Shown here piece by piece: positions 5,421 through 25,965 of a DNA stretch of 26,851 nucleotides. Made by a program: the position numbers and the translations under genes. The notes under the pieces are model-generated. The model saw only the letters and a program-made list of their open reading frames with translations. It did no database searches and was not told the origin of the DNA. Source of the DNA: an archaeon (GTDB taxonomy: Archaea; B1Sed10-29); NCBI GenBank assembly GCA_048620055.1, contig JBMCFZ010000001.1:1-26851 (forward strand), in the 5' to 3' direction. Numbering within the stretch: position 1 is the first letter of the stretch; every line of letters begins with the position of its first letter.

Positions 5421-8400
5421 ATGAAAATGAAGAGAAATTGGAAAACGGGTTGCTTAAAAGGAATTTCACTCGTATTAACCTTAGTTCTAACTCTACATAT
5501 GCTTTCTTTGCCTGTATCAGCTGCTCCTTATAATTCAAATGTATCTGATGAAGATCAAGAAGAATACACTGATGAAGAATTACCTCCTTTGAAAACTGAA
5601 AGTATAAGTGACAGCGTAGAAATAGTTGAATTAGATTGGAAGGAAGTAGAAAGATTATTGGATCAAACGGGAAATGTTACATTCGACGGATTTGGAGATA
5701 AATCTGCTTACGATGAATATAAAGCAAGAGAAGAAGCAGGAATATCAGATACACCAGGAATTAACAATACGGAAAATAAGTTTATTACTACGAATGAAGG
5801 AGAAACAGTAATGCTTTATGATTTACTTGAACATAGAGCAATAGACCCAACTGAAGTACCTCATCTAAGTCATATGGTTACAACAGGACATATGTCATAC
5901 ACTACCTTACTAGAAGAAACAACTAGAATATGTCCAGAATACCCAGATGAAACCTGTGAAACAGGACATCTAAACCCACAGAAAAGAAACGAACTTCAAG
6001 AAGAAATAAATGAAAAAGAAAGAGCTATTAACGAAGCTAGTGAAGTAGCAAGGGACGTCGCCGGACCAATGGGAGAGACTTTAGAGAGCATAACTTATCA
6101 AATGGGGTTCGCTGAATATGAGAATGTCACGGAATTTTTCGAAGGAGAAACAAAAGACTTAGAAGAACTAAAAGCAGAAATAGGAGATGAATCACCTTTA
6201 AACGCAATTCAAAGTAATTATTCCATATCACATCTACAAAGAACAGATTCTACATTACTCTTCCCTCATCATTTAGCTAAATTCACTCAATTCCTAGAAA
6301 GTTTACAACCAGGAGACAGAATGTACTCAGTAGCTCTAGGAATATCAGTAGCTACAAGCCTAGGAAGTGTAGCACAATCAATGAGTGGTCTTAAAATGGC
6401 TAAAAAAGGAACAGATGCAGTAGATAACTTAGATGCAGTGACTAAAAAAGCAGATAAAGCAATAAGCAATATTGAAGCAAAAATGAAGACAGGGGACCTT
6501 ACTCAAGATCAAATGGATGTCTTAAATGCTAAAAAATCTGCACTAAAAGCCTTAAAGAGCAAGGCAAAATCTGCAGATAGTGTAGATGACTTCCAAGATT
6601 CTGTAAAAGGGACAAGAATAGGTGGAGATACCACTAAAGGAAGTCAAGCATCAGAATCCTTTGATGATGCTATTAAAAATATAGAAAACAATAAAGAAAC
6701 CCTTGATAGCTTCGAGGGATTAAATGCTAATGATGAAATAGAGAATTATCAACTCGCAAAAAGACTAGTTAATGCAGAAGATTCTAAACAATACACTTCT
6801 ATACTTAATGATATAGATAGCACTGAAAAAGCTAATGAAGTACAAGATATACTTAAGACCCAAGGAGGTATAAGCGAATTTAATGATGTAACTAAAACTC
6901 TAGGTGGAACTGATGGAGACGAATTAATGAAAGCTTTGGGTAGACATGATGCATATTACGGTGATGTTGGACAATTTATGGGTACTACTATGGACACTAC
7001 AAGTAAGAAAGGTAAATTATTAACAGCTCTGACTGACTTAGGTGTGAGTCGAAGAGCAATAGGAATAAGAGCCCTATCAGGATTTAGAAATAGTGTAAGT
7101 GTATTTCAAGGATCATTAGTAGTTTCATTTATCCCTTTAACTTTCTTTGGACAACCAAAACCAACATTTGAATTAATGACTCTTTCAATGGAAGCAGAGC
7201 CAAATAGAGTAATTGAAGATAAAGATGCTTATTTAGAAATAGCTAGAGCTACAGATAGAGCTTATGGACAAGATTTTTATCCTGCAGGAGTATTTGAAAA
7301 TTTATTGAACTTCTTCAACTTTGATTTAAGTGAAATAACAGGAGAAAATGATGCAGACATAGTTAGAAGAAAAATAGAACAAAACCCAGGGCCTGGGTAC
7401 GTTAAAGTAATAGATCAAGAAACCTCTGCTGAACAATACTCAGAAAAACCAATTAACATGATTTATCCGCAGAGAATAGGTGACGGAACCGGAGAAAAAT
7501 GGATGATCAACAGTATAAATCCAACAATGACAGACTATCAAGCATTTGAACATCCCAAATCATACGTCGAAGGGAATAAAAATTTATTTTCAACATTTAC
7601 TCTGATAATAAAAAACCTGAACTTGGGTGGATTAACTACAGTAGAAGAAGATTGGGCAGAACATAGTCATGATTACCTAGTAGATTACACTCCAACTACT
7701 AAAACAATGGTTTACGGATCAGCGATAGGAGGAATACTAACTGGAATAGCACCAGGAGGAATGTTCACAGGTAGAACAGGAACAGGGGTGCTAAAAGGAG
7801 TTGTAGCAACATTAATGCTAAAAGGATGGGGTTCTTTAGCTCAAGAAGAAGCAGAAAGAATGCAAGATCAAAAATACGGTGAAGTTGTAGACATAGGAGA
7901 AGCTTATAAAGAGGGAGAGCCATGCAGTGCCAAACTTGATGAATTAGAAAGTGATATTCAAGATATGAGAAGATGGATGTGGGTAACAATAATCGGAAAT
8001 ACCGGAGCAGATATAACAAGCATGGCTATAACCAGTGCAGCTACAGCTACAACAGGACCATTTGGACTAGCTGTAACCGCAACTAACATTGGCTTCTCAA
8101 TAGCTAATTACTACTACACAAGAGAATATCAAACCCTAAAAACAGATGGATTAGAAGAAATGAAAGAATGTCAAGAGACAATGTTTGAAGTACTTGCATT
8201 GAAAGCAATGCCAACGGAAGATAAACAATCGGAAGATATGTTAGAACAAATTAAAGGAGATCTAGGGGAAGGATTATCAGGAATACCTGGAATAGAATCA
8301 ATATCACCGGAAACATCAGATGCCCTCAAAAATCTAGGGCCAACATCCTACCAAAATATAATGGCTCTAAGCGGAAAAATAGAAGGAAAAAGCTTAATAA

Positions 8401-9956
8401 ATCTACTTGGATCAGAACTTTACCAAGTTCATTTAGACAGAGAAGCTGACATAAAATGGTTCTTAGAAGAACAACAAAACATAGATTTCTGTTATCAAAC
8501 AGACACAACCATGGAAGAAAGACCAATATTCGAATGTATACAAGCTCAAGGCTACACATTACTAGATCCAGAGGGAAGACCTATAATAGATGCACCTCAA
8601 ACAAAAGGATTCAGATGGGACAATGATAGAGAACTAATGACCATACCACAGAAAGTGATAAATACAAAACAAGAAACTGGAGAACTAATGGAGATAGAAA
8701 GAGACGAAGTAAGGATAGATGATCAAGATACTCAGGAAGCAGTACAGAAATTAACAGGAAATTCATATACCAAAGATATATTTGGGGAACTGCAGACGAT
8801 TAAAACAGAAGAAGCCGTAATATGGCACGATGGGAACACAGCAGTAGCTAGATTCACAGAACCTGTTGGAGGAGAAATAGGAAGAGGAAAAGTCTTAAGA
8901 TTCGATGATGCACACATACAAACGTATAAAGATAACCAAATAGAGATACAAAGTAATGCAGACAATGAAAAACTATTAGACCACACTTTTGAACTTGGAG
9001 AAAACGGGTTCCTAAGTTTCGAAAATGGTAAAATAGTGCCAGGAAGTGGACAACATGAATTAAATATAAATAACCAAACAGCTACTAGGGACTTTGGAGA
9101 ATGGAACCATATAATACTGTATGATTTACTGAGCTTCACCGCTGATAGAGCGGATGATTACGACATAGAAGGACTAGAATATGATGAAGATGGCAATATA
9201 GTTGGATTTGAAATGGGAGGGGACTTCCCGGATGAACATCAAGATCAGATGGATGCATTATTAGAAGAAATGGCTTTCAATGATTTAGTAGGGCCAGATG
9301 GAAGGAGAATGAGAATAGAAGACGGAGAATTAATATATGTTGATGAGACGGGAGAAGAAACAAGATCTAAAATAATAGGGTTTGAAGATGGAAAAATACA
9401 ACTAGAGGATGGTAGAGAACTAGAATTAGATAAAGGTCCTGATGGACAGCCTCAAGCACAATTCTATCGAGATGGAGAACCGGTTGGAGCACCAATACCC
9501 TTACTTAGAGCCAGTGGAGTTGGAGGAATGATGGGATACGATCCACAAACTGGAGAAATATCAATAAGTAATGAATTCCCATTCCAAATGAACCCTCAAT
9601 TCGGAGATATAGGAGCAGGAATGACTAATCCAGGAATGATGATACCTCAACAATCTGAATTTGGAGGAAGACCACCAGAACCAGGAGTAGATTTCCCAAG
9701 AGAAAGAGAACCAGGATTGATAGCAGAACTACCATCAACACCGGGAAGAGAAAGTCAATTAGGAGAATTAGATGAAGATAGTCAAGAAACAGAGATGGAA
9801 CCAAGTGAAACCTCTGATGAAGCAGAGGAAGAAAAAGAAACAGGAACAACTTTACCAATCAATAAAATAGCATTAATCCTATTCATTTTAACAATACTTG
9901 GAGGAGTACTAGCAATAAGAAAGAAAGGAAGGAAGATAAGAGTTAAGAAAAATTAA
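5421..9956 (+). CDS. Giant (1511 aa) exported, C-terminally anchored surface protein with internal Gly/Ala-rich hydrophobic segments
   Basis: Signal peptide ending PVSA-A, acidic body, hydrophobic segments near aa 301-325, 545-578, 763-808 and 852-899, Pro/Glu-rich linker, then TTLPI-NKIALILFILTILGGVLAI-RKKGRK. GAGGA SD upstream. Confidence 0.85.
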   Translation: MKMKRNWKTGCLKGISLVLTLVLTLHMLSLPVSAAPYNSNVSDEDQEEYTDEELPPLKTESISDSVEIVELDWKEVERLLDQTGNVTFDGFGDKSAYDEYKAREEAGISDTPGINNTENKFITTNEGETVMLYDLLEHRAIDPTEVPHLSHMVTTGHMSYTTLLEETTRICPEYPDETCETGHLNPQKRNELQEEINEKERAINEASEVARDVAGPMGETLESITYQMGFAEYENVTEFFEGETKDLEELKAEIGDESPLNAIQSNYSISHLQRTDSTLLFPHHLAKFTQFLESLQPGDRMYSVALGISVATSLGSVAQSMSGLKMAKKGTDAVDNLDAVTKKADKAISNIEAKMKTGDLTQDQMDVLNAKKSALKALKSKAKSADSVDDFQDSVKGTRIGGDTTKGSQASESFDDAIKNIENNKETLDSFEGLNANDEIENYQLAKRLVNAEDSKQYTSILNDIDSTEKANEVQDILKTQGGISEFNDVTKTLGGTDGDELMKALGRHDAYYGDVGQFMGTTMDTTSKKGKLLTALTDLGVSRRAIGIRALSGFRNSVSVFQGSLVVSFIPLTFFGQPKPTFELMTLSMEAEPNRVIEDKDAYLEIARATDRAYGQDFYPAGVFENLLNFFNFDLSEITGENDADIVRRKIEQNPGPGYVKVIDQETSAEQYSEKPINMIYPQRIGDGTGEKWMINSINPTMTDYQAFEHPKSYVEGNKNLFSTFTLIIKNLNLGGLTTVEEDWAEHSHDYLVDYTPTTKTMVYGSAIGGILTGIAPGGMFTGRTGTGVLKGVVATLMLKGWGSLAQEEAERMQDQKYGEVVDIGEAYKEGEPCSAKLDELESDIQDMRRWMWVTIIGNTGADITSMAITSAATATTGPFGLAVTATNIGFSIANYYYTREYQTLKTDGLEEMKECQETMFEVLALKAMPTEDKQSEDMLEQIKGDLGEGLSGIPGIESISPETSDALKNLGPTSYQNIMALSGKIEGKSLINLLGSELYQVHLDREADIKWFLEEQQNIDFCYQTDTTMEERPIFECIQAQGYTLLDPEGRPIIDAPQTKGFRWDNDRELMTIPQKVINTKQETGELMEIERDEVRIDDQDTQEAVQKLTGNSYTKDIFGELQTIKTEEAVIWHDGNTAVARFTEPVGGEIGRGKVLRFDDAHIQTYKDNQIEIQSNADNEKLLDHTFELGENGFLSFENGKIVPGSGQHELNINNQTATRDFGEWNHIILYDLLSFTADRADDYDIEGLEYDEDGNIVGFEMGGDFPDEHQDQMDALLEEMAFNDLVGPDGRRMRIEDGELIYVDETGEETRSKIIGFEDGKIQLEDGRELELDKGPDGQPQAQFYRDGEPVGAPIPLLRASGVGGMMGYDPQTGEISISNEFPFQMNPQFGDIGAGMTNPGMMIPQQSEFGGRPPEPGVDFPREREPGLIAELPSTPGRESQLGELDEDSQETEMEPSETSDEAEEEKETGTTLPINKIALILFILTILGGVLAIRKKGRKIRVKKN

Positions 9957-9966
9957 TTCTCATAAA

Positions 9967-10464
9967 CTAGTAATAGACCTTAAAAACTGCTTCACAACCA
10001 TCATCCAAATTTACTGAAGAAGTATAAGCAACGAAATTTTCTCTGAAGAATTCTTCTTCTACATCTTCTCCCTCGTATTGATAAACATAATCTGAATCTT
10101 CATTGGGATAACAATACGGAGTATCAACAGCACAACCTCCTTCGAAACAGAGGAAAGGATATCTGCTTGGAGAAGAATTGAGTACTTCTCCCCAAATATC
10201 TTCTCCATCAATATAATCAGTTATTTCATTCTCATCACCATCTTCCTCAACTCTATATCTAATATCATTCCAAAATCGGAAATTATTTACACTATGTAAA
10301 GCAACTAACGAATTCCCTGTATACTCTAAGTTATATACAGCACTTATCTGTTGATCTATACCTTGACCATATAATCCAGAGACATAAAACATTAAAGTAG
10401 ATGCAACCGCACATATGAACATGAAGAACAATGCATCCATCACGGCTCCCTGTCCCTTATTCAT
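9967..10464 (-). CDS. Prepilin-like protein with class III signal peptide (minor pilin/pseudopilin)
   Basis: MNKG|QGAVMDALFFMFICAVASTLMFYV. SD GAGGTG (10476-10471) 6 nt before ATG 10464 favours this start over the track GTG at 10473. Confidence 0.75.
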   Translation of the reverse strand: MNKGQGAVMDALFFMFICAVASTLMFYVSGLYGQGIDQQISAVYNLEYTGNSLVALHSVNNFRFWNDIRYRVEEDGDENEITDYIDGEDIWGEVLNSSPSRYPFLCFEGGCAVDTPYCYPNEDSDYVYQYEGEDVEEEFFRENFVAYTSSVNLDDGCEAVFKVYY

Positions 10465-10500
10465 TTCCAGCACCTCTTGTCAAAAATCTAAGTTTCTTAA

Positions 10501-10932
10501 TCATCTCACATCCCACACACATACTCTAAGAGTTTCTAATTCTATGTTATCTCCTTCTTTCCTTGAAACTAAATAAGAAAAGTAAAGAGATTCTTCGCCA
10601 CATCCTTTATTAGGATCATCAGAATTAAAAGGACTTCCTTCTATCTCATCTCCCCCGTAATCTGCATTGAAAGCTAAATCATTATTTCTAGCTATAGATT
10701 TTGCTTCGGGTACATCTACTAACTTTTTAGAATCATACTCTATTATAGAGTCTCCAACTATTGCTCTACTTACATCTAAACCACCTTGCATTAACCTAAC
10801 ATCTCTTTGTTTAGTGTTAAAAGTTCTCATTGCAAACGTTAATCCCGTGAAGAAAAGAGTTAAAGCTAACATTATAGCTATTAATGAAGGCAAGTCATCT
10901 CCTATTGGTCCTATAAATCCTTTATTTTTCAT
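10501..10932 (-). CDS. Prepilin-like protein with class III signal peptide
   Basis: MKNKG|FIGPIGDDLPSLIAIMLALTLFFTGLTFA, with an acidic C-terminal domain containing a Cys pair. Confidence 0.75.
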   Translation of the reverse strand: MKNKGFIGPIGDDLPSLIAIMLALTLFFTGLTFAMRTFNTKQRDVRLMQGGLDVSRAIVGDSIIEYDSKKLVDVPEAKSIARNNDLAFNADYGGDEIEGSPFNSDDPNKGCGEESLYFSYLVSRKEGDNIELETLRVCVWDVR

Positions 10933-10967
10933 AATATTTCCCTATTCATTTTTATCCATACATTAAT

Positions 10968-11468
10968 TTAATTTCTTCTTCCACCGTAGATTCTAAATAA
11001 ATTTCCTTCTTTACGTACGTATACTATACCGTAAGCAGAAGAATTCAATATTAAATTATCTTCACCATTATCATCTTCACCTAATTCTATTTCGTAGTCT
11101 TCAAACGTGAAAGATGAAGCGGCTATATAACTATCAATATCTTTACCAGGACTATGTAAATCTTCAGCAATAGCTATATAAACTTCATCGCTTGATTCTG
11201 TCCAGATATGCATAGTATAAGGTATTGACCTATCTGAATCCTCTGGAATCTCCTCAGGCATAACTACAAATCTCGTTCCTGTTTCAGCTCTTATTCCAAG
11301 CAGTGCCTGTATTGAATCTTTTACTCTTAAGACTAAGTGCTGAGAAGAATCAGCAACAGCCCTTTGTTGAACCAAACCTGTAAAAGAAAGGATAACTGCA
11401 AAAGTCATTGTTAAGAAAATCAACATCACGACTTTAGTCATTAACCACGTTGCTATCCCTCTCTTCAT
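10968..11468 (-). CDS. Prepilin-like protein with class III signal peptide
   Basis: MKRG|IATWLMTKVVMLIFLTMTFAVILSF. SD AGGTGA upstream. Confidence 0.75.
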   Translation of the reverse strand: MKRGIATWLMTKVVMLIFLTMTFAVILSFTGLVQQRAVADSSQHLVLRVKDSIQALLGIRAETGTRFVVMPEEIPEDSDRSIPYTMHIWTESSDEVYIAIAEDLHSPGKDIDSYIAASSFTFEDYEIELGEDDNGEDNLILNSSAYGIVYVRKEGNLFRIYGGRRN

Positions 11469-11490
11469 TTATTCACCTAATTATATCTTA

Positions 11491-12057
11491 TTAGTTACCA
11501 AGTCTCTTTATAACTATTCTATCACTACTCTCCTTCGTAACTTGAACTGAGAAAGTTCCTTTACCCCATCCACAATCTTCATTAGAATTAAATTCCTCAT
11601 CATAAATATCTGTATGATCATCTTCCCTACAACTTCCTATATTTTCCATATCTACGGTTATTCCTTCCGGAATATCAATGTAACTTCTTGCAGCTATGTA
11701 CCTATTTTCTCTTTGGTCAACAGATACTGCTACAGCCATTATACAGTCTCTTTTACCAATATTATCTTCACAGGCATCTGGAGGACCATCAACAAGCCTT
11801 ATAGATTCAAAACCCACATCACACCCAGGCGGAACAGAAGTATCAAGAGTTATAGCTGGAGGTCTAGTTCCTTCTCCTCCCTGGTAAGCTTGTTCCATTA
11901 CCCTACTAAGTCTATCTAAACCCGCTCTTACTTTGTGATCGTACTGTGTCGCACATACTTGTCTGTAACTGTAGAAACCAATAGTTACAACAAAAGTCAG
12001 TATAGTGACTCCTAATAAAAGTTCTACGGGCATTGATTCTTGACCTTTATTTTTCAT
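11491..12057 (-). CDS. Prepilin-like protein with class III signal peptide
   Basis: MKNKG|QESMPVELLLGVTILTFVVTIGFYSY, with a Cys-rich acidic domain. Confidence 0.78.
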   Translation of the reverse strand: MKNKGQESMPVELLLGVTILTFVVTIGFYSYRQVCATQYDHKVRAGLDRLSRVMEQAYQGGEGTRPPAITLDTSVPPGCDVGFESIRLVDGPPDACEDNIGKRDCIMAVAVSVDQRENRYIAARSYIDIPEGITVDMENIGSCREDDHTDIYDEEFNSNEDCGWGKGTFSVQVTKESSDRIVIKRLGN

Positions 12058-12079
12058 GATTTAACAAAGAATCTCTATG

Positions 12080-12088
12080 TATAAAAAA
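12080..12088 (-). promoter_or_regulatory. Putative internal TATA box for a leaderless transcript starting at ATG 12057
   Basis: Minus strand TTTTTTATA, with TTTATA 23-28 nt upstream of ATG 12057. No SD precedes that ATG. Confidence 0.45.
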
Positions 12089-12118
12089 CTGACTACCAAA
12101 TAAAGATATTAACACATT

Positions 12119-12125
12119 AAAAAAA
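12119..12125 (-). terminator. Putative oligo-T archaeal terminator after the 53-aa mini-pilin
   Basis: T7 run on the minus strand immediately after the TAA stop at 12128-12126. Confidence 0.35.
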
Positions 12126-12287
12126 TTAAAGGAAAAAGGGAGCTATTAAAGAGAGTCCGTACTCCGCGTATCTAGCTCCTTCCTGGAACATTGGCTTTAT
12201 TATAGCGAATAAAAGAATTGCAGCTATCGCTATCACTATCATTAAGTATATCGGTGTCCAGCCAACTTCTCCAGATTCATCCATCAT
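12126..12287 (-). CDS. 53-aa prepilin-like membrane peptide (not in the ORF track)
   Basis: Hand translation gives MMDESG|EVGWTPIYLMIVIAIAAILLFAIIKPMFQEGARYAEYGLSLIAPFFL*. It fills the gap in a co-oriented prepilin array, 13 nt after the stop of 12301..12726. Confidence 0.75.
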   Translation of the reverse strand: MMDESGEVGWTPIYLMIVIAIAAILLFAIIKPMFQEGARYAEYGLSLIAPFFL

Positions 12288-12300
12288 TTAAATCATTCTT

Positions 12301-12726
12301 TTAATTAATATCACATTCACTTGTCATATCATCTGTATCTGCACCTACTCCTATGTAACAAGTATCATCATCATCGCAACAAACTAAAAAGTCACTATCA
12401 CCGTCACCAGTTATCTCAAGAGTAGAACCCCAACTTCCTTCAGGATCACAGAACCCTCTATCACATCTAAACTCTACGTTTCCTCCTCCTGCTGCATCGC
12501 TGAAAGCACCACCTGTATATAAGGACCCTGATTCAAAAGGTACTTCTGGACCTCTTCTTACTACTCCTCCATCTCTAGCATCTCTGAGTAGTTCTCTAGC
12601 TTGTTGTTCAAATCCTACCGGAGTAGTGATTCCTCCTAATATTTGTAGTAATATTCCTAATATCGCTATTGCTACTACTGCTGCTATTAATAATTTGAAC
12701 GTGCTGAACTCCTGTCCTTTCATCAT
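12301..12726 (-). CDS. Prepilin-like protein, candidate major pilin
   Basis: MMKG|QEFSTFKLLIAAVVAIAILGILLQILGG, with a Gly/Asp-rich domain containing 6 Cys. The SD GAGGTGAT 6 nt upstream is the longest I noticed in the array. Confidence 0.8.
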   Translation of the reverse strand: MMKGQEFSTFKLLIAAVVAIAILGILLQILGGITTPVGFEQQARELLRDARDGGVVRRGPEVPFESGSLYTGGAFSDAAGGGNVEFRCDRGFCDPEGSWGSTLEITGDGDSDFLVCCDDDDTCYIGVGADTDDMTSECDIN

Positions 12727-12793
12727 TCATATATCACCTCGGTTTTCGTTATTATAAATATACTTGGAAAGTTTATAAATCTTTTCATAAAAT

Positions 12794-13186
12794 TCATTTA
12801 CCGCAATTTGAAGAACCAATCCAAAGACCACAGTCATTACTATTACATTCAGCTGAAAGTGAAGACTCTGCATTATACTCGATGATATCACCCGATAAAA
12901 AAGGCGCGTCACCTTCTATAGACACAGTTTTATCTTCCACGAAGTTCTCCAACATGCTTTCATGATAAGGTTGTCCTTCTTGGAAATGAACAGGATCTCT
13001 TGAGAAACAAGCATCTGGTGTTTCAGAAGCACTTCTCAAAACTGATTCAGCTGCTTCTATCCCTGTTATAGGGGGTTGAATTGAATATACGTAACTGTAG
13101 ATTATTGTTAGAAGAGCTACTGAGAAAGCTGCAGCTATAAGTAGTTTGAATATCTCTCCACTTTGACCTTTATTCATTGAAATCAT
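12794..13186 (-). CDS. Prepilin-like protein, paralog of 12301..12726
   Basis: (MIS)MNKG|QSGEIFKLLIAAAFSVALLTIIYSYV shares FKLLIAA, A..(L/V)LR.A and V.F..G..Y with the neighbour. Alternative start ATG 13177. Confidence 0.78.
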   Translation of the reverse strand: MISMNKGQSGEIFKLLIAAAFSVALLTIIYSYVYSIQPPITGIEAAESVLRSASETPDACFSRDPVHFQEGQPYHESMLENFVEDKTVSIEGDAPFLSGDIIEYNAESSLSAECNSNDCGLWIGSSNCGK

Positions 13187-13199
13187 CTTTTGTATTATC

Positions 13200-15263
13200 T
13201 TATGCCATTACCGCTGACATTTGAGTTGCCATGTAAGCTGAGATGAAGTAGAAGACTAATGCTATTGGTAGTCCCTTTGCTATATTTATTTTTAAGGCTA
13301 AGTTATTTGGTCCTTCTTCAACTCTACTTGTGAAGTAAATTAGTATTAGGGTAACTTGTACTACGTATACTCCAATTATTAGTAGGAAGAATGTTGGCCC
13401 TGGTACCGCTTCAAGTACCTCCGCTGATCCAAATATTCCTGATAGCCCTCCTATACCTACTTCTCCAGCGGCTTCTGCATCTCCTATCTGTGTGTCTCCC
13501 ATTGCTCCCAATGCATTTATAATTATTCTTTGAAGAGATGTGGTTATTCCTAGTACTAATGGACCTATAAGGTAAGCTATTGACTTCATCATAGCTGTTA
13601 TATCTTCTAGTTGTGTTCTAATTTTCTTTCTAACTTCTCCTGTATCTTTTAATTGTATTGATAGAGAAACTAAGGTTCTTGCTGCTTGTTTAGCTCCTAG
13701 TCTTGATGAATCTACAACTACTTTCATTGCTCCTTTTATTAAGTCGCTTGGAATATGTTTTAAGGAACCGTAGTTAGGATCAAAGAAGGCTTCTTCCATC
13801 GTCATTCCCATTGTTTTAAGGTTACTTACTGTTTCTTCAAATAATTTGGCTATTGGTGTGTCTCCTAGGAATTTAGCCGTGTATGAGAGAGCTTCTTCCA
13901 TAGGTCTGTTTTCTCCTAATCTGCTTGATAAAATATATATGGAATCTTTGAACCCTGTCTCCATTCTAATCATTTCTTCTTGAACCTTTCTACGATCCTT
14001 GCTCATACCGTATAAGTAAATTGATATGGCTGCTGCTATTGCTAATATTGATCCTGATAACCTGAAGAAAGGAATATATTCTTCCTCAGCAGCTGCTGCA
14101 GTTTCCATTACTGGTTCAGGGTTTAACATAGGTTCCAAAACATAGGAAAATGATAAGAAGATAGCTATAGCGATTGCTATTGATACTAACCATACCGGGA
14201 GCATTGTGTCTCCAATTTTCATGTGTCCTCTTTTCGGTAGTCCAGGATGATCTTTTGGTATATTGGGAGGAACGTAAACTGGTGGTCTTTTACTAAGGAT
14301 GTGTTTAGCGAATACGAATGTCCCTATAGGTACTAATATATTGTATAACAGTATTAAGACCCACCATTTAGCTAATGGTACATTAGCCATCATTGACCCT
14401 ATTGGTAACATTATTACTAGTATCAGGGGAAGTAGAACTCCGACGTAGTAGAGATATATACTTGGTTGTTTCATTGATTTTGCGTATTCAGTCATATCAT
14501 TTTTTATACCCTCTAAAACATTTTCCATAGCTTTATCCAGTAGTTGTCTTCTTTGAGCATCGTTTGGTTCCACTGTACTTGATCTTATCAGCATTAACCC
14601 GTGTTTGAATTCTTCACTGTATTCTCCCCATCTATAAGCTAGTTCATCCAGAGCTTCTCCCATTGTTCTGTATTTCCCTATCTCTAGATTCCATACTATG
14701 TCCTCTAAGTCCTCTGCAATTTTTCCTCTTCCATGTTCTGCTGCAAAACTCACTGCTTTCTCTAAGTTAGGAGTGAGTTTCATGGACATTACTAAGTAAT
14801 TCGTTATTTCAGGTATGTATGTAAGCGCTTCAACTCTTTGTTGTTCAGCTGCTTTTATAGGGTAGTTGTTGAAGAAGTATAATACCATTATAGGTAGTAG
14901 GACTAGTGGCATAGCTATGTATACTAATATAGTCATGCTAAGTACATTTTCTATGAATGTGAAGTAGAATAGTAGTCCAAAGGCAATTATAGTTGGTATT
15001 AGTGCCATTGTCGTGGCTTTTTTAGTAGCTGCGGCTATTTCATTGGGTGTTAATTTCCATCCTAGGAACCCTACTGCTTTTTTGTATTTTTCAGAGGTCC
15101 ATTCCCCTCCTTTTATTTTAGGATTCTCTGCAAATTTAGTGTACCAATTTTTCTTTTCTTTTTTTTCACTTGGTTTTTTGTCTTTTCCAAATCCGCCTGG
15201 ACTGTATATCCCCTCGTCTTCTGAATTGGAGTTATCTTCGTTATATCTTTCCCGCGGCGTCAC
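13200..15263 (-). CDS. Type IV pilus/T2SS F-family (TadB/TadC/FlaJ-like) platform protein with two cytoplasmic domains
   Basis: Repeated TM-pair plus helical-domain architecture, with motifs PNLEKAVSFAAEHGRGKIAEDL and RLGENRPMEEAL. Lies directly downstream of and overlaps the ATPase. SD AGGAGG (15276-15271) supports GTG 15263 over the track start 15284. Confidence 0.88.
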   Translation of the reverse strand: MTPRERYNEDNSNSEDEGIYSPGGFGKDKKPSEKKEKKNWYTKFAENPKIKGGEWTSEKYKKAVGFLGWKLTPNEIAAATKKATTMALIPTIIAFGLLFYFTFIENVLSMTILVYIAMPLVLLPIMVLYFFNNYPIKAAEQQRVEALTYIPEITNYLVMSMKLTPNLEKAVSFAAEHGRGKIAEDLEDIVWNLEIGKYRTMGEALDELAYRWGEYSEEFKHGLMLIRSSTVEPNDAQRRQLLDKAMENVLEGIKNDMTEYAKSMKQPSIYLYYVGVLLPLILVIMLPIGSMMANVPLAKWWVLILLYNILVPIGTFVFAKHILSKRPPVYVPPNIPKDHPGLPKRGHMKIGDTMLPVWLVSIAIAIAIFLSFSYVLEPMLNPEPVMETAAAAEEEYIPFFRLSGSILAIAAAISIYLYGMSKDRRKVQEEMIRMETGFKDSIYILSSRLGENRPMEEALSYTAKFLGDTPIAKLFEETVSNLKTMGMTMEEAFFDPNYGSLKHIPSDLIKGAMKVVVDSSRLGAKQAARTLVSLSIQLKDTGEVRKKIRTQLEDITAMMKSIAYLIGPLVLGITTSLQRIIINALGAMGDTQIGDAEAAGEVGIGGLSGIFGSAEVLEAVPGPTFFLLIIGVYVVQVTLILIYFTSRVEEGPNNLALKINIAKGLPIALVFYFISAYMATQMSAVMA

Positions 15264-17520
15264 GTTGTTTCCTCCTTGCCACAAGTTCTTTTACTTGTTC
15301 TTTCTTTACCCATTCTTTCCATTTCTCCTTAGCTTCTTCATAATTTACGGAACCGTGTTCTTTTCTTTGGTTTTCTAGTATCAAGCTCCATTTCGTGTTT
15401 GCTGGAACTGTGTATTCTCCTTCTAGTAATTTAGGTATTTTGTATTCATTTTTCATGTCAACCAAGAATTGTTTGGTGTTTGCTCTTGCATTGATATCCT
15501 TCCAAATATCTTCTTGGGTTAAGCCTCTGTCTTTTGATATTTTTTCAAATAACTGTGAATCATCCAGGTTTTCTTCCATTATGTGATGGCTGTCTTCTTT
15601 TGTATTGAATCCTAGGATATCTATTAGTTCTCCTTCTCTGTATGGGTCTTTGTACCAGTGTTTTCCTATCTCCGTTATTCCCACGAGTCTTCTTTTTTTC
15701 TCTAATGACCCTTTGAATCTAACTGGTTTACAGGTTACAACAACATCGGTTGCTTTGAATGATGTGCTTGGTACCCCTAAATCATTTACTACTCTATCCC
15801 ATACTGAGTATGCTCCTGTTCCGTGTATTGTTCCCATCACTACGTTTCCCGCTGCTCCTACTCTCATTGCTTCGTATAATACTTTTGCTTCCTTTGATCT
15901 TACTTCCCCTATAATCAGTACTGATGAACCTAGTCTTAATGCTGTTCTTAGAGCTTCTTCTGGTGGTACTTCTGCTTCTGTACCTGCCATTGATATTGGC
16001 GACCGTGTTTTGAGTCTTTGTATGTTGAAGCCTATCTTCTTCATGTATTCAACAGGCATCTCGAATGTATCTTCTTGAAGTATTATTCTTAGTGATGATA
16101 ATATTTCGAGCATTAAAGCCTGCGTCATAGAGGTTTTTCCTGCTCCTCTACTTCCTGTTACTAGAGTGGTTGCTTGTGCATCTATTAGGAAACTTAGTAA
16201 ACCAGCTGCTATGTCATTAACCATATTTACATCTATATATTGTGGAAGTGTCCATGGAGTAATTTTATGTAGCCTTAGGACTATTGCTCTTCCTTCTGGC
16301 GCTAATGGTTTTCTTATTGCCGCTACTCTAGTATCTAGTCTTTCCAGTGAGAGGTCTAATATAGGATGTGCTTCGTCGAATGGTCTTCCTGATAGTGACC
16401 TGAATCTAGTGATTATTCCTTGTGCTTCTTCTTCTGTAAATATGACGTTTGTTTGACAAGTTCCATAATCCTGGTGTGTTAGATAAACCGGGTATTGCCC
16501 CATAGGAGAATCTATGTATATATCTGTTAGTTTTCTGTCATTTAGAAGTAGTTCCATCATCCCAAAGCCAATTGTGTATCTTGCAACGATGTTTGCTAGA
16601 TTATCTCTTTTTTCTGTAGATATATCTATATTGTTTTGTTCAGCTAGATCTTCTATTGTCTTTGAATAGGTTCTTTTGAAGTATCTTTTCGCTTCTCCCG
16701 GTTCTCTGAACGATACTTCTTCTGGTCTATAGTTAGCTACCTGTTCCCTTGTTTTTGATAGTAAGAAATATTCATCCGGTGTTAAATAGTATTCAGGTGG
16801 CTGTATGTAGTATAAGTTCTCTATTTTGTTTGGATTACTATATATTTTTACTTTCGCATCCCTTACCTCGTATGAATCCAGTAATTCTACTTCTTCCGGT
16901 GTTTGGTAAAATACTCTGCTCGATACGAACCCTGGTTTTATCTCAACTTCGAACACTGAGTGGTAAGGTTCTCTCGTTCTTGGAATTTCCCCCATTTCTT
17001 TTATTAATAATTTGAGTTCTTTGACTATCTCGGTTTCATTGAATCTTTTCAGTATCCAATTAAGTGTCTTTAGGTAAGCTAAACTGCATTGTTTTTCTTT
17101 TTCACTAAGCTGATTTAATCCTTCTTTTTCTCTCTTTATAACTTGTCTTAGTCTTATATATGCTTGTAGTGGATCTCTTGTTACGAGTTCTCTGGCAATC
17201 GTGACGACTGTATTATACCTTGGTTTATGATTTCTATTACATTCTTTAGATTTTATTCTGCTTGGAGCCCATACTTTTTTTTGTTCAAACTCATCTGCTA
17301 GTGCTCCTAGTTCCTTAACCATTTTTGTTTGTTTTTTATTGTAAGTTCTTTCATACACTTTACTAACTACTATTATATCCGCGTTGTGTTTGAAGCTCCA
17401 TTTGGCGCATTTATTCATGAATTCAGGGTAATCAGCGATGGAGCAGTTTGTTTCTCCTTTGCAGTTAATTATTAAATAGGTGTCGTCACCTTTTGTTTTA
17501 GTGGTGTATTCATGAGGCAT
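15241..17520 (-). CDS. Type II/IV secretion system (VirB11/TadA/FlaI-like) ATPase with a long N-terminal extension
   Basis: Walker A GSRGAGKT (16155-16132), Asp box QEDTFE, Walker B LIIGEVR, His box MGTIHG. Also ARYTIGFG..E.LL.D..L.DIYID and the RPFDEAHPILD motif. Confidence 0.95.
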   Translation of the reverse strand: MPHEYTTKTKGDDTYLIINCKGETNCSIADYPEFMNKCAKWSFKHNADIIVVSKVYERTYNKKQTKMVKELGALADEFEQKKVWAPSRIKSKECNRNHKPRYNTVVTIARELVTRDPLQAYIRLRQVIKREKEGLNQLSEKEKQCSLAYLKTLNWILKRFNETEIVKELKLLIKEMGEIPRTREPYHSVFEVEIKPGFVSSRVFYQTPEEVELLDSYEVRDAKVKIYSNPNKIENLYYIQPPEYYLTPDEYFLLSKTREQVANYRPEEVSFREPGEAKRYFKRTYSKTIEDLAEQNNIDISTEKRDNLANIVARYTIGFGMMELLLNDRKLTDIYIDSPMGQYPVYLTHQDYGTCQTNVIFTEEEAQGIITRFRSLSGRPFDEAHPILDLSLERLDTRVAAIRKPLAPEGRAIVLRLHKITPWTLPQYIDVNMVNDIAAGLLSFLIDAQATTLVTGSRGAGKTSMTQALMLEILSSLRIILQEDTFEMPVEYMKKIGFNIQRLKTRSPISMAGTEAEVPPEEALRTALRLGSSVLIIGEVRSKEAKVLYEAMRVGAAGNVVMGTIHGTGAYSVWDRVVNDLGVPSTSFKATDVVVTCKPVRFKGSLEKKRRLVGITEIGKHWYKDPYREGELIDILGFNTKEDSHHIMEENLDDSQLFEKISKDRGLTQEDIWKDINARANTKQFLVDMKNEYKIPKLLEGEYTVPANTKWSLILENQRKEHGSVNYEEAKEKWKEWVKKEQVKELVARRKQRDAAGKI

Positions 17521-17619
17521 GTTGATCGTATCTCCAGTTATATTTCTAAAGGGTATAATCGTTTAAAACGTTTCTTGAATTTAAGTTCTTCATCCCCTTC
17601 AGATTCCCGAGTAAATTCA

Positions 17620-18207
17620 TTGGAATTGAAGAAGGGTTTACTATTCATAATAAGTATTTTGTGTTTATATACTTTATTTTGGTACTTAATTCAGTTCATT
17701 GGACTGGAGCATCTGAGGAATTTCACCGCCTATGCTGCTTCGGAGTTACTCAGATTTTCAGGAGTCGCTAACATCGTTGTTACTCGTAATTCTTTTCCTG
17801 TCATAACTATTGTGATTGAGTCCGTTAGAGGAATCGAAGAGTTAATAGGTGGAGCGGTCACTGATCTATGTGTAGGTGACATAGAATTGGCTCTTCTTCC
17901 AGCCATTATCTTAAGTACTTTTGACAGGTCCTTGAGAAAAAGGATAATGGGAGTAATATCAGGAATTCTTTTAATTGTATTGATTAATCCTCTTAGAATC
18001 TTTGTGGTGATGTGGACAGGAACAAGATTCGGATGGGGAGTAGCTGAATTTATGCATTCATTCACCTTCAGGTTAACATTAATCTTAATAATACTGGGTT
18101 TCTACTACATATGGTACTTGAAATATGAGGAAGCATCAAACGCACTTCGTTTGGCTCCAAGATTTATTTCAAGGAAAATCGATGAAATAAGGGGAAAAAT
18201 TAGATGA
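17620..18207 (+). CDS. Archaeosortase/exosortase-family membrane transpeptidase/peptidase
   Basis: Putative catalytic Cys in VTDLCVG (17869), Arg in INPLRI (17995) and His in EFMH (18055), within a multi-TM protein. Track start 17512 overlaps the divergent ATPase start, so in-frame TTG 17620 or 17626 is more plausible. Confidence 0.85.
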   Translation: MELKKGLLFIISILCLYTLFWYLIQFIGLEHLRNFTAYAASELLRFSGVANIVVTRNSFPVITIVIESVRGIEELIGGAVTDLCVGDIELALLPAIILSTFDRSLRKRIMGVISGILLIVLINPLRIFVVMWTGTRFGWGVAEFMHSFTFRLTLILIILGFYYIWYLKYEEASNALRLAPRFISRKIDEIRGKIR

Positions 18208-24219: not shown

Positions 24220-25965
24220 ATGGAAAAAAATCGAAAAAACTTGATAAAGAAAACTCTGCTACTACAAACAGCAGTAATAATCCTAGCTATAATGATGTTA
24301 AGTATCCCAACTTATAGAGCAAAAAGACTAAATCAAGTAACCCTGCCTGATACTACTATATACGATGTAGCTAGTGGGGAAACAGCGCCAGAAGGTATGA
24401 ACTTACAAATATTCTGTGAAGGGCCGAATGAATATGGATTCTGGTTTGCAGGGTGTGATGACCCAGGTGCAAGTAGTGGAGAAGGAATAACAGATAGTAA
24501 CGGAATAATAGAAAAATTAGATGGAGAATACGAAGGAAAAGTATATACTGAAGGATGTAGACATGGGTACTATGGAAACTGTATGCTTGCAGTAAACACT
24601 AATGAAGATATAAAAGATCTAGATCCTGATCAAGCTGAAATAGAGGGAGCAAGCGGTAGATGGAGAGGAACAGTATCCAAAGAAGATTTAATACGGTACG
24701 AAAACTGGGAAGATAACGATCCAGAACAATACTTCCAGGGATTGGAAGGAACGGATAGCTATGACCAATCAACATGGGCAACAGTAGCAGGATGGACAGC
24801 GATGATAATAATAATAATAGTACTCACTATAATAACAGGAGGGCTTTTTGCAAAAGTAGGAGCCTTAATGGCAGGACAAACAATAGGAGCAGGGCTTTTA
24901 AAAACTGGCTTAGCATATTTAGGAGTGAAGGCCTTTGGTATAGGAGTTGGAATTGGAGTAATAGTAACCTGGCTTACAGGTGCCGCCAACTACCTAGGTT
25001 GCCAAATATCAGAATTGTGGGATGACGAAGCATGCGTGCTCGAAAGAAAATTTAAAAATACAGTAATAGGGATAGAGCCGACAGGACCAGAAGAAACCTA
25101 CGAAGAAACAACAACCACAAAAGTAGACAACGTGCAAGTAGAAGCTGACAATGTAGTTACAGATGTAAAAGTAATGACAAGGCATCAATTAAATGAATAC
25201 TTAATAGGACAAGGACTGAACCAAGAAGTAGAAGACACCAGCAGTCAAGAGATAATAAGAGTGATAGAAGGCCCAGAATATCCTAACTGCAGGATAGCAC
25301 CCAACTATGGATATATAGATGGGGATACAACAAGGCCGCTAGAAGGAGAACTAAGAATAGAAAACGCTACTGCAAATGAGTCAATGATACTTAACAATGA
25401 AACCTACAAATTCACAGTGGAAGACAAACCAGGATCAAGAAACTTCGAGATAACAGCACAGAAACTCACTGAAAACACAAAAAACATCTTAGAAGAAATG
25501 CCTGAGTCAGTAGGAATAAATCAAGAGGGATACCAAGGACCATGTGTATCAAGCTACTCAAGCACACCATTAGAATCAAGGATAATGAATTTTGCAATGG
25601 AACCCGCAAGCCCACTAAAATCAGGAGATGTATACACACCAAGTCCGATATATGAGGGAGAAAGAGCAGGATACATAGAAGAAATAAATGAAGAACTAAG
25701 ATGTGCACCAGGAGACGAATTAGTGTCAGCAACAGAAACTCCTGATAGCAAACTGTTAAGAGATAAAGTTCTAGAGGAAGCTGATATAGATAATTACTGT
25801 GAAGTAAGTCCAGAGAATTTCGCTGAAAGAATGGTTCCATGCGGAGAAGGACAAGCAGCACCAGTAGGATACATGTGCGCAGAAAAAGGAGAAAAAACCT
25901 GTCCACTAGGATCACTCTATAATCCAGCCACAGAAAAATGTATGATATCACAGGATATGGGTTAA
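24220..25965 (+). CDS. Exported Cys-rich protein with an internal 76-aa Gly-rich hydrophobic segment
   Basis: N-terminal signal or anchor, 14 Cys by hand count, hydrophobic W186-C261 segment, C-terminal CPLGSLYNPATEKC module. Confidence 0.8.
   Translation: MEKNRKNLIKKTLLLQTAVIILAIMMLSIPTYRAKRLNQVTLPDTTIYDVASGETAPEGMNLQIFCEGPNEYGFWFAGCDDPGASSGEGITDSNGIIEKLDGEYEGKVYTEGCRHGYYGNCMLAVNTNEDIKDLDPDQAEIEGASGRWRGTVSKEDLIRYENWEDNDPEQYFQGLEGTDSYDQSTWATVAGWTAMIIIIIVLTIITGGLFAKVGALMAGQTIGAGLLKTGLAYLGVKAFGIGVGIGVIVTWLTGAANYLGCQISELWDDEACVLERKFKNTVIGIEPTGPEETYEETTTTKVDNVQVEADNVVTDVKVMTRHQLNEYLIGQGLNQEVEDTSSQEIIRVIEGPEYPNCRIAPNYGYIDGDTTRPLEGELRIENATANESMILNNETYKFTVEDKPGSRNFEITAQKLTENTKNILEEMPESVGINQEGYQGPCVSSYSSTPLESRIMNFAMEPASPLKSGDVYTPSPIYEGERAGYIEEINEELRCAPGDELVSATETPDSKLLRDKVLEEADIDNYCEVSPENFAERMVPCGEGQAAPVGYMCAEKGEKTCPLGSLYNPATEKCMISQDMG

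Follow-up and report, generated by a model that had tools for sequence, protein, structure and literature searches.

In colicin pore domains, the T domain of diphtheria toxin (TH8-TH9) and Bcl-2-type proteins, a short turn connects two uncharged helices. These proteins are initially water-soluble, with acidic residues in or near the hairpin and a marginal hydrophobicity compatible with export, and the hairpin is buried in a globular bundle of 8-10 helices with neither a polar stalk nor a clamp. A second design is found in ClyA, YaxAB/XaxAB, Hbl/Nhe/AhlB and the type III secretion system (T3SS) translocators IpaB/SipB/YopB, in which the apolar far end of a long coiled-coil stalk enters the target membrane. 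The RTX toxins HlyA and CyaA are secreted proteins with several Ala/Gly/Ser/Thr-rich, marginally hydrophobic helices; CHCH proteins staple an antiparallel helix-turn-helix with in-register Cys pairs; and the alpha-hairpins of the adaptors HlyD and AcrA, which are polar throughout, dock on TolC. Marginal hydrophobicity is needed by segments that are exported and only later inserted, as is established for colicins, diphtheria toxin and RTX toxins. Here we describe residues 835-917 of a 1511-amino acid (aa) protein, hereafter the giant protein, encoded in a 26,851-nt stretch of archaeal DNA (contig JBMCFZ010000001.1, positions 1 to 26,851, assembly GCA_048620055.1; hereafter the window). These residues are predicted to form a long antiparallel coiled-coil hairpin with a Cys at the base of each arm and a nearly charge-free tip, which we tentatively read as an element for entering membranes.

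Compared with the colicin-type hairpins, the one described here is clamped on a stalk. The ClyA-like toxins and T3SS translocators have no Cys clamp, and the giant protein would instead stay attached to its producer by a C-terminal anchor. RTX toxins leave the cell by type I secretion, as opposed to a putative Sec route for the giant protein. CHCH proteins use CX9C motifs, whereas a distant branch of the present family has CX6C, with two Cys per arm, and the giant protein a single pair; its hairpin is also presumably extracellular, far longer and apolar-tipped. The HlyD and AcrA hairpins are the best geometric match (Z 6.6-7.3, within the generic range for helical proteins) and differ in their polar tips.

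Searches for membership gave a consistent picture. Pfam, run on the whole protein, on 30 family members and on hairpin fragments at E values up to 10, returned nothing usable, and the colicin pore domain PF01024 was not matched by any of these queries. NCBIfam gave no family match for the giant protein, and PDB sequence profiles built from the N-domain, residues 545-985 and residues 545-1440 gave nothing usable. Specific hallmarks were also missing: there is no PF02382 match and no GGxGxD motif in the 30 family proteins (RTX toxins), two CX9C motifs occur in neither the giant protein nor the distant branch (CHCH), Pfam finds no lipoyl or beta-barrel adaptor domain (HlyD/AcrA), and no T3SS component is encoded in the locus, which has a T2SSE/T2SSF-type motor, an archaeosortase and, on the giant protein, a Sec-type signal peptide. 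The feature works like the colicin and diphtheria hairpins, the stalk and tip of ClyA and the T3SS translocators, and the CHCH staple, but the membership tests that could be run place it in none of these families. We are not aware of a described family of archaeosortase-type surface proteins in which a coiled-coil stalk, a Cys clamp in register (single or twin CX6C) and an apolar tip rich in Gly/Pro occur together, and our literature search found no paper describing the giant-protein family. New here are the hairpin as one of four similar segments, the purge of N-glycosylation sequons from residues 300-985, and the conserved synteny with pilus-like and archaeosortase genes.

An earlier note, made from the DNA letters alone, had described a symmetric, Cys-clamped hydrophobic hairpin at 7923-8171 of the window. 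The 83 residues translated from this interval match its quoted sequence letter for letter, in the layout it gave: Cys835, 16 polar residues (836-851), a stretch of 48 residues (852-899), 17 polar residues (900-916) and Cys917. The 48-residue stretch is nearly uncharged, as claimed, with Asp864 its one charge, and stands out in a protein with 27% charged residues, but to call it hydrophobic goes too far: its best 19-residue Kyte-Doolittle (KD) mean is 1.03, compared to 1.97 for the signal peptide and 2.27 for the C-terminal anchor of the same protein. About half of its residues are Ala/Gly/Ser/Thr (AGST). The arms have 40-48% AGST and 24-30% Ile/Leu/Phe/Val (ILFV), compared to 29% and 55% in the ordinary membrane helices of the organism (n = 234). 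Each apolar arm carries a polar stripe, formed by Asn860/Asp864/Ser867 on arm 1 and Asn889/Ser893/Asn896 on arm 2.

To place this layout against the genome, we defined a qualifying pair as two Cys between which balanced charged arms enclose a core of 36 residues or more with no more than one charge. The clamp is the sole qualifying pair among the 574 Cys pairs spaced 60-100 residues in 618 open reading frames (ORFs). Because the layout is unique among these pairs, and because both Cys are invariant in 30/30 family members, it is not due to chance.

A word-based search had identified four relatives of the giant protein at 32-65% identity. A profile search of 1.84 billion cluster representatives matched 42 proteins, 28 of them at E ≤1e-30 and nearly all 1300-1800 aa long. 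About 30 of the relatives are full-length. Counts for the family refer to a set of 30 members, 27 of which were used for comparisons of the N-domain or of the full length; pairwise identity among members falls to ~20%. Conservation of the two Cys had been proposed as a check on the hairpin, and both are invariant in this set. The distance between them varies from 65 to 97 residues (median 78), while the polar/low-charge/polar design is kept, with a core of median 38 residues (range 26-54) and polar arms of median 16 on both sides. The 16/17 symmetry holds in the subgroup of the giant protein and not family-wide, where by a crude measure the arms agree within 3 residues in 16/30 members. Identity between the clamp Cys is low, ~19% in the tip and 16-22% in the stalk.

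What is conserved is the pattern. Aligned on the first Cys (Cys1), stalk arm 1 is hydrophobic at +3/+4, +7, +11 and +14 and charged at other positions; aligned on the second (Cys2), arm 2 is likewise hydrophobic at the positions listed in the table below and otherwise charged. In the tip, the charged fraction across the 30 homologs is 0-7% at most positions, irrespective of heptad position. Its composition is A 20%, G 16%, T 11% and P 10% (Gly+Pro 26%), with K and R at 1% each. An acidic residue recurs within each apolar arm (43% at +29 and at -24), a basic residue never. The boundary between stalk and tip is marked by K/R at +15/+16, directly outside the polar-apolar boundary of arm 1 (37-47%), and by W/Y/F at -19/-20 from Cys2 (43-50%, compared to a background of 8.7%).

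In five distant homologs (L014-L018), which belong to other families of the class, a C-x6-C motif stands immediately before the hairpin and another immediately after it (5/5). Their outer Cys align with Cys835 and Cys917, their hairpins are more hydrophobic (KD 1.5-2.0), and the twin clamp lies ~60-75 residues upstream of a C-[QK]-E-x-x-F motif; the C-x-E-T-x-F motif that follows the second clamp Cys is retained in this branch. With the same spacing of 7 residues, one heptad, on each arm, these Cys are placed as two disulfide rungs in register across an antiparallel coiled coil would require, and the twin CX6C is the strongest support for the clamp that sequence comparison offers. We noticed additional Cys directly upstream of the twin clamp and occasional sequons right before it.

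AlphaFold2 was run on residues 545-1440 (896-residue model) and 545-985 (441-residue model), each with a 30-sequence alignment. Both models place a helix at 835-872, a turn at 873-879 and a second helix at 880-916, with a predicted local distance difference test score (pLDDT) of 81-88 in the stalk and 51-65 in the tip. The antiparallel stalk anticipated by the note is borne out as a hairpin of ~82 residues in these two independent monomer predictions, which support assigning residues 835-917 to a canonical antiparallel coiled-coil hairpin. Cys835 and Cys917 are equidistant from the turn and in register at the base of the hairpin. The proposed disulfide closure stands to this extent, with the twin CX6C as expected for rungs; the Cys835-Cys917 bond itself is a prediction, and we infer that it forms.

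Structure comparison found generic relatives of this shape. The best superpositions in VIA had Z scores of 8.5 for the 441-residue model and 8.1 for the 896-residue model, all to generic helical arrangements; values up to 8.5 are in the generic range for helical proteins, and helical matches below 8 mean little. On HlyD (5c21) the hairpin superposes with Z 7.3 and a root-mean-square deviation (rmsd) of 1.8 Å over 82 residues, and HlyD, a lengthened ROP variant and F-BAR hairpins superpose at rmsd 1.6-1.9 Å over 75-83 residues; AcrA (2f1m) follows at Z 6.6 and a gp41-derived 5-helix bundle at a generic Z of 6.2. The sole colicin Ia match aligns to chain residues 230-440, which we take to be the long coiled coil and not the pore domain. 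The colicin pore-domain fold is absent from the Foldseek and VIA matches, an absence that does not exclude the fold, and ClyA-family and tripartite toxins are absent from them too; the likeness in stalk and apolar tip is one of analogy only. With Foldseek, the 896-residue model retrieved from PDB only beta-propeller-like entries of low template modelling score (TM-score; 0.05-0.09), and the 441-residue model nothing at E 0.001 in PDB or BFVD, and class I viral-type fusion proteins gave no significant match in either database. A shape search of the ESM Atlas reached TM-scores of at most 0.24. Its feature search ranked unnamed clusters first (0.84), with RTX, colicin and glycine-zipper proteins at 0.77-0.79, which we regard as leads only.

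The hairpin (S4) is the fourth of four marginally hydrophobic, Ala/Gly/Ser/Thr-rich segments, S1 to S4, that are conserved in composition and not in sequence. S3 contains five overlapping GxxxG motifs, starting at residues 766, 771, 775, 780 and 789. It is the least confidently modelled part of the protein. In the most remote homologs, S3 and the hairpin are what can still be recognised. A K/R cluster is conserved after S1 and another before S2: in the 12 residues downstream of S1, K/R stand at 2.96 and D/E at 0.78, and upstream of S2 at 2.19 and 0.26. The region between them, 324-552, has a net charge near 0, whereas the other domains are acidic. Complex prediction docked the S1 region (270-340) on residues 545-985 with a score of 0.50 (best control 0.00), the runs agreeing in at least 63% of contacts and the partners having pLDDT of at least 57. 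The docking mark is reached by 58/80 solved complexes and 2/110 mismatched pairs; at scores ≤0.60 it is reached by just 7 of the 80 solved complexes and by both passing mismatches. This result weakly supports contact between the two parts and does not decide between membrane entry and its alternatives.

The central region is also set apart by its lack of N-x-S/T sequons. In region 324-552, whose mean pairwise identity is 14%, the 27 homologs (6,922 residues in total) contain 0 sequons compared to 34 expected by shuffling (z = -6.4). Over residues 300-985 (6321-8375 of the window), 20 are observed and 111 expected (z = -9.6), an approximately five-fold depletion, and in the N-domain sequons are at expectation (56 vs 58). 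Control tripeptides ([ST]-x-N, N-[ST], N-x-x-[ST], D-x-[ST] and Q-x-[ST]) are near expectation: z lies between -0.2 and -2.0 for region 324-552 and goes no lower than -3.3 over residues 300-985. Genome-wide, the ratio of observed to expected sequons is 0.97 in likely cytoplasmic ORFs and 1.40 in ORFs with an N-terminal hydrophobic segment. N-glycosylation is plausible in this reduced genome because it encodes a homolog of the STT3/AglB-type oligosaccharyltransferase (846-aa ORF, G000:C63:1870-2718; 36.6 bits, above the Pfam cut-off).

On these counts, the central region of the giant protein is under purifying selection against sequons. Since a cytoplasmic loop would be expected near 1.0 and zero are seen, the pattern points to a region that is exposed to the glycosylation machinery and selected to stay bare. 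By the same comparison, the central module, hairpin included, appears to do something that bulky glycans would block, which could be entry into or crossing of a membrane, threading through something narrow, or very dense packing.

In our best reading, which is tentative but quite possibly correct, the clamped hairpin would serve as a latent wedge for insertion into a membrane. The hairpin and S1, S2 and S3 would make up a glycan-free, latent membrane-active module, its four segments too weakly hydrophobic to arrest export. The charged coiled-coil stalk, 16-17 residues per arm, would hold the tip out from the beta-rich body of the protein, and the base disulfide would keep the arms together so that they enter as one unit. 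The uncharged Gly/Pro tip (the distal 20-21 residues of each arm and the turn) would lead into the bilayer, with the basic/aromatic collar at the boundary of stalk and tip setting the depth at the lipid interface, and the Asn/Asp/Ser stripes might face the inside of a pore or join hairpins to one another. The target would be the host membrane, where the type IV pilus-like machinery encoded nearby would establish contact. Entry of the tip into a membrane, and the identity of that membrane, we infer. The host membrane is attractive because the protein would be tethered to the symbiont and is encoded beside a pilus motor; it is the most likely target, and nothing distinguishes it from the symbiont's own membrane.

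The interpretation in the earlier note is partly supported, in its structural half by the models and the twin clamp, while evidence on insertion into a host membrane stands on both sides. Several sequence features are in favour of insertion: charge is excluded from all heptad positions of the tip, the tip is bordered by the aromatic/basic collar, its turn is rich in Gly/Pro, the protein has three further segments of the same kind, and the central region is kept free of sequons. Other findings weigh on the opposite side. The core has a mean KD of 0.55-1.51 across the family, and the giant protein's best window, 1.03, is below the classical threshold of 1.6. At a median of 38 residues, the core is too short in most members for two bilayer-spanning helices, so that these would allow at best a monotopic wedge. 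We had considered bilayer-length arms as a general argument and rejected it, as it is true of the giant protein (21 + 20 residues) and not of the family. Up to 6 charged residues occur in the core of some homologs. Arm 2 is periodic at 3-4 residues: positions -20, -23 and -27 are bulky, -21, -24 and -28 polar. The same pattern would be seen in a helix of a soluble bundle that packs by one of its faces. The helix at 546-576 (S2) appears to lie alongside the hairpin in the models, because the VIA alignments to three-helix bundles span model residues 2..361. Finally, no likeness to any pore-former, translocator or fusogen was found by Pfam, NCBIfam, PDB profiles, Foldseek, VIA or the ESM Atlas.

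Much of this evidence would be expected if the hairpin and S1-S3 formed a small-residue ("Alacoil"-like) bundle buried in a homo-oligomer or surface lattice, such as a stalk or S-layer-like assembly, in which no lipid is involved and the disulfide merely stabilises. We consider this explanation somewhat unlikely, and it is the alternative that best survives. The regular coiled-coil model with its apparent third helix, the amphipathic periodicity of arm 2, and the low hydrophobicity and internal charges of several homologs all suit it, as do the small-residue-rich arms, whose [GAS]xxx[GAS] motifs are those of closely packed helices in general. Avoidance of sequons could likewise come from dense packing in a fibre or lattice, and the docking of the S1 region on 545-985 (score 0.50) gives weak support. 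Against it, charges are kept out of all heptad positions for ~20 residues per arm in a protein in which 27% of residues are charged. This exclusion holds across homologs whose tips are ~19% identical and vary in length, whereas a buried core would normally preserve both its sequence and its length. Nor would a soluble bundle be expected to have a basic/aromatic collar where stalk and tip meet.

It is quite unlikely, in our estimate, that the hairpin, possibly with S1-S3, resides permanently in the symbiont's own membrane as the base or collar of a pilus or surface apparatus, either in a polytopic protein with 324-552 in the cytoplasm or as re-entrant hairpins inserted from outside. The K/R clusters flanking S1 and S2 fit the positive-inside rule, the near-neutral charge of 324-552 among acidic domains is consistent with this placement, and the hairpins of the distant branch are transmembrane-like in their hydrophobicity (KD 1.5-2.0). 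Among the weak, non-significant Foldseek matches are also EsaA and Wzc, polytopic proteins whose long helical hairpins are extracellular. Yet a cytoplasmic 324-552 should hold sequons at the chance level of 0.97, and it has 0 where 34 are expected; the polytopic topology, with S1 and S2 as transmembrane helices, had been raised from the K/R flanks and was rejected on this count as our principal interpretation. All internal segments are less hydrophobic than the organism's ordinary transmembrane helices, and the combination of a cleavable-type signal peptide with an archaeosortase-type C-terminal signal is typical of secreted surface proteins. A very unlikely last alternative, in which the apolar tip binds a hydrophobic protein partner as adaptor hairpins meet TolC tip to tip (candidate partners being a protein on the host surface or the N-terminal helices of the pilin-like proteins encoded nearby), draws on the HlyD and AcrA superpositions and on the gene's constant place beside seven pilin-like ORFs, but the hairpin geometry is generic at Z below 8 and a specific interface should conserve a tip that is in fact divergent and variable in length.

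Beyond the wedge itself, in a wider reading that we regard as unlikely, DPANN cells would contact the host through an apparatus whose membrane-penetrating part, acting after pilus docking, consists of the hairpin and its three sister segments. The glycan-free central module would enter the host membrane, with the hairpin as wedge or pore-lining element, and S1 and S2 would carry the hypervariable, sequon-free loop of 230 residues onto or across the host bilayer. This entry would seed the pore or the cytoplasmic bridge by which the symbiont is fed, and evolution of the hypervariable loop would follow host specificity.

Cryo-tomography shows contact sites, nanotubes and bridges of DPANN archaea (e.g., PMC11329633, PMC11291902), and term searches of these two papers for candidate genes returned no named membrane-active protein. 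How DPANN archaea breach or fuse with the host membrane is an open question, for which the family offers a concrete, clonable candidate: it has one match per genome in one DPANN phylum, is putatively anchored to the symbiont, is encoded in a pilus-and-sortase locus and has a module (clamp, collar and tip) that can be mutated. The disulfide-clamped stalk with an apolar tip, including its twin-CX6C form, would also be a recognisable search motif for other episymbionts, and complete purging of sequons from a fast-evolving region may be a cheap computational sign of exported segments that are kept glycan-free. If the hairpin is instead part of a buried bundle or lattice, the finding would be more modest and consist of a stapled coiled-coil motif, new in kind, from a surface protein that lacks annotation.

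Table 1. Features of the giant protein and its locus, with positions in the window.
Feature	Position	Strand	Remarks
1511-aa ORF, giant surface protein	5421..9956	+	acidic, net charge -133, putatively exported
N-terminal basic stretch and hydrophobic signal peptide, aa 1-35	5421..5525	+	KD peak 1.97
S1, aa 301-323, marginally hydrophobic, Ala/Gly/Ser/Thr-rich	6321..6389	+	KD 0.97, AGST 57%
Hypervariable K/D/E/A-rich region, aa 324-552	6390..7076	+	without N-x-S/T sequon in 27 homologs
S2, aa 553-578, marginally hydrophobic helix	7077..7154	+	AlphaFold2 helix 546-576
S3, aa 762-806, glycine-zipper-like, weakly hydrophobic pair	7704..7838	+	pLDDT <50, composition conserved
Cys835, first clamp residue	7923..7925	+	invariant 30/30; first residue of AlphaFold2 helix 835-872
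Polar stalk arm 1, aa 836-851	7926..7973	+	heptad-like hydrophobic positions
Apolar arm 1, aa 852-872	7974..8036	+	RR-WMW collar at start; KD 0.74, AGST 48%, ILFV 24%
Turn, aa 873-879, Ala/Thr/Gly, Pro880 adjoining	8037..8057	+	AlphaFold2 turn, pLDDT 51-65
Apolar arm 2, aa 880-899	8058..8117	+	NYYY aromatic collar at end
Polar stalk arm 2, aa 900-916	8118..8168	+	hydrophobic at -3, -6/-7, -14 from Cys2
Cys917, second clamp residue	8169..8171	+	invariant 30/30; followed by conserved C-x-E-T-x-F motif
L-P-x-x-P motif, aa 1437-1441, of C-terminal sorting signal	9729..9743	+	conserved
C-terminal transmembrane anchor, aa 1476-1498, then basic tail	9846..9914	+	KD 2.27
Small ORFs (seven putative pilin-like), T2SSF-like platform, T2SSE-like ATPase	9967..17520	-	syntenic with giant gene in relatives
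Archaeosortase-family gene	17512..18207	+	TIGR04178, E 6.1e-10

The giant protein is presumably exported, its signal peptide likely being cut after VSA. At its other end it has the layout of an archaeosortase substrate, with the L-P-x-x-P motif, a transmembrane helix and a K/R tail, and A1435, L1437, P1438 and P1441 are each kept in at least 85% of 27 homologs. From this layout, an archaeosortase probably processes the protein, which would be anchored by its C terminus, and the archaeosortase of the locus, whose counterpart in a relative (L005) matches Pfam Exosortase_EpsH, is the likely processing enzyme. Across the family, the C-terminal signal (9729-9743 and 9846-9956) reads [AQ]-L-P-x-x-P, 3-8 residues, transmembrane helix and basic tail, and resembles VPXXXP-CTERM with one residue less. 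The giant protein and its three closest relatives have an acidic insert of ~35 residues between the motif and the transmembrane helix, and a second T-[TL]-P stands directly before that helix. Two further Cys pairs are conserved, Cys171/Cys179 (5931-5957) in 27/27 members with the N-domain and Cys1024/Cys1039 (8490-8537) in 30/30 members; together with 835/917, the family probably has three conserved disulfides.

The window has a G+C content of ~35% and comes from a genome bin of 657 kb that is 62% complete. Its source organism is a DPANN archaeon, an assignment made because relatives of the giant gene are labelled Candidatus Micrarchaeota and Candidatus Iainarchaeum. The family has one match per genome in 19/31 species genomes of the phylum in the genome collection, among them 13 of the 17 further genomes from the same order; elsewhere in the class, other families yield weak matches, mainly over the region from S3 to the hairpin. 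On these searches, the family is confined to one DPANN phylum.

The neighbourhood is stable. Even in relatives at 31% identity, the genes follow the same order: small exported proteins, giant protein, seven small pilin-like ORFs, platform, ATPase, archaeosortase. The window encodes a T2SSE-type ATPase and a T2SSF-like platform protein; the small ORFs have no Pfam match, and their pilin label is putative only. PAC2 and DUF473 proteins are encoded in the window as well. In a 581-aa neighbour protein, a Gly-rich insert (24775-25002, aa 186-261) contains a run of five Ile and reaches a KD of ~2.6; we considered it as a sister of the hairpin and rejected it, as it is far more hydrophobic and resembles ordinary transmembrane helices. 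In the 31%-identical relative, a deoxyhypusine synthase gene (L005 14464-15384) separates the giant gene from the pilin-like ORFs, the order being otherwise unchanged.

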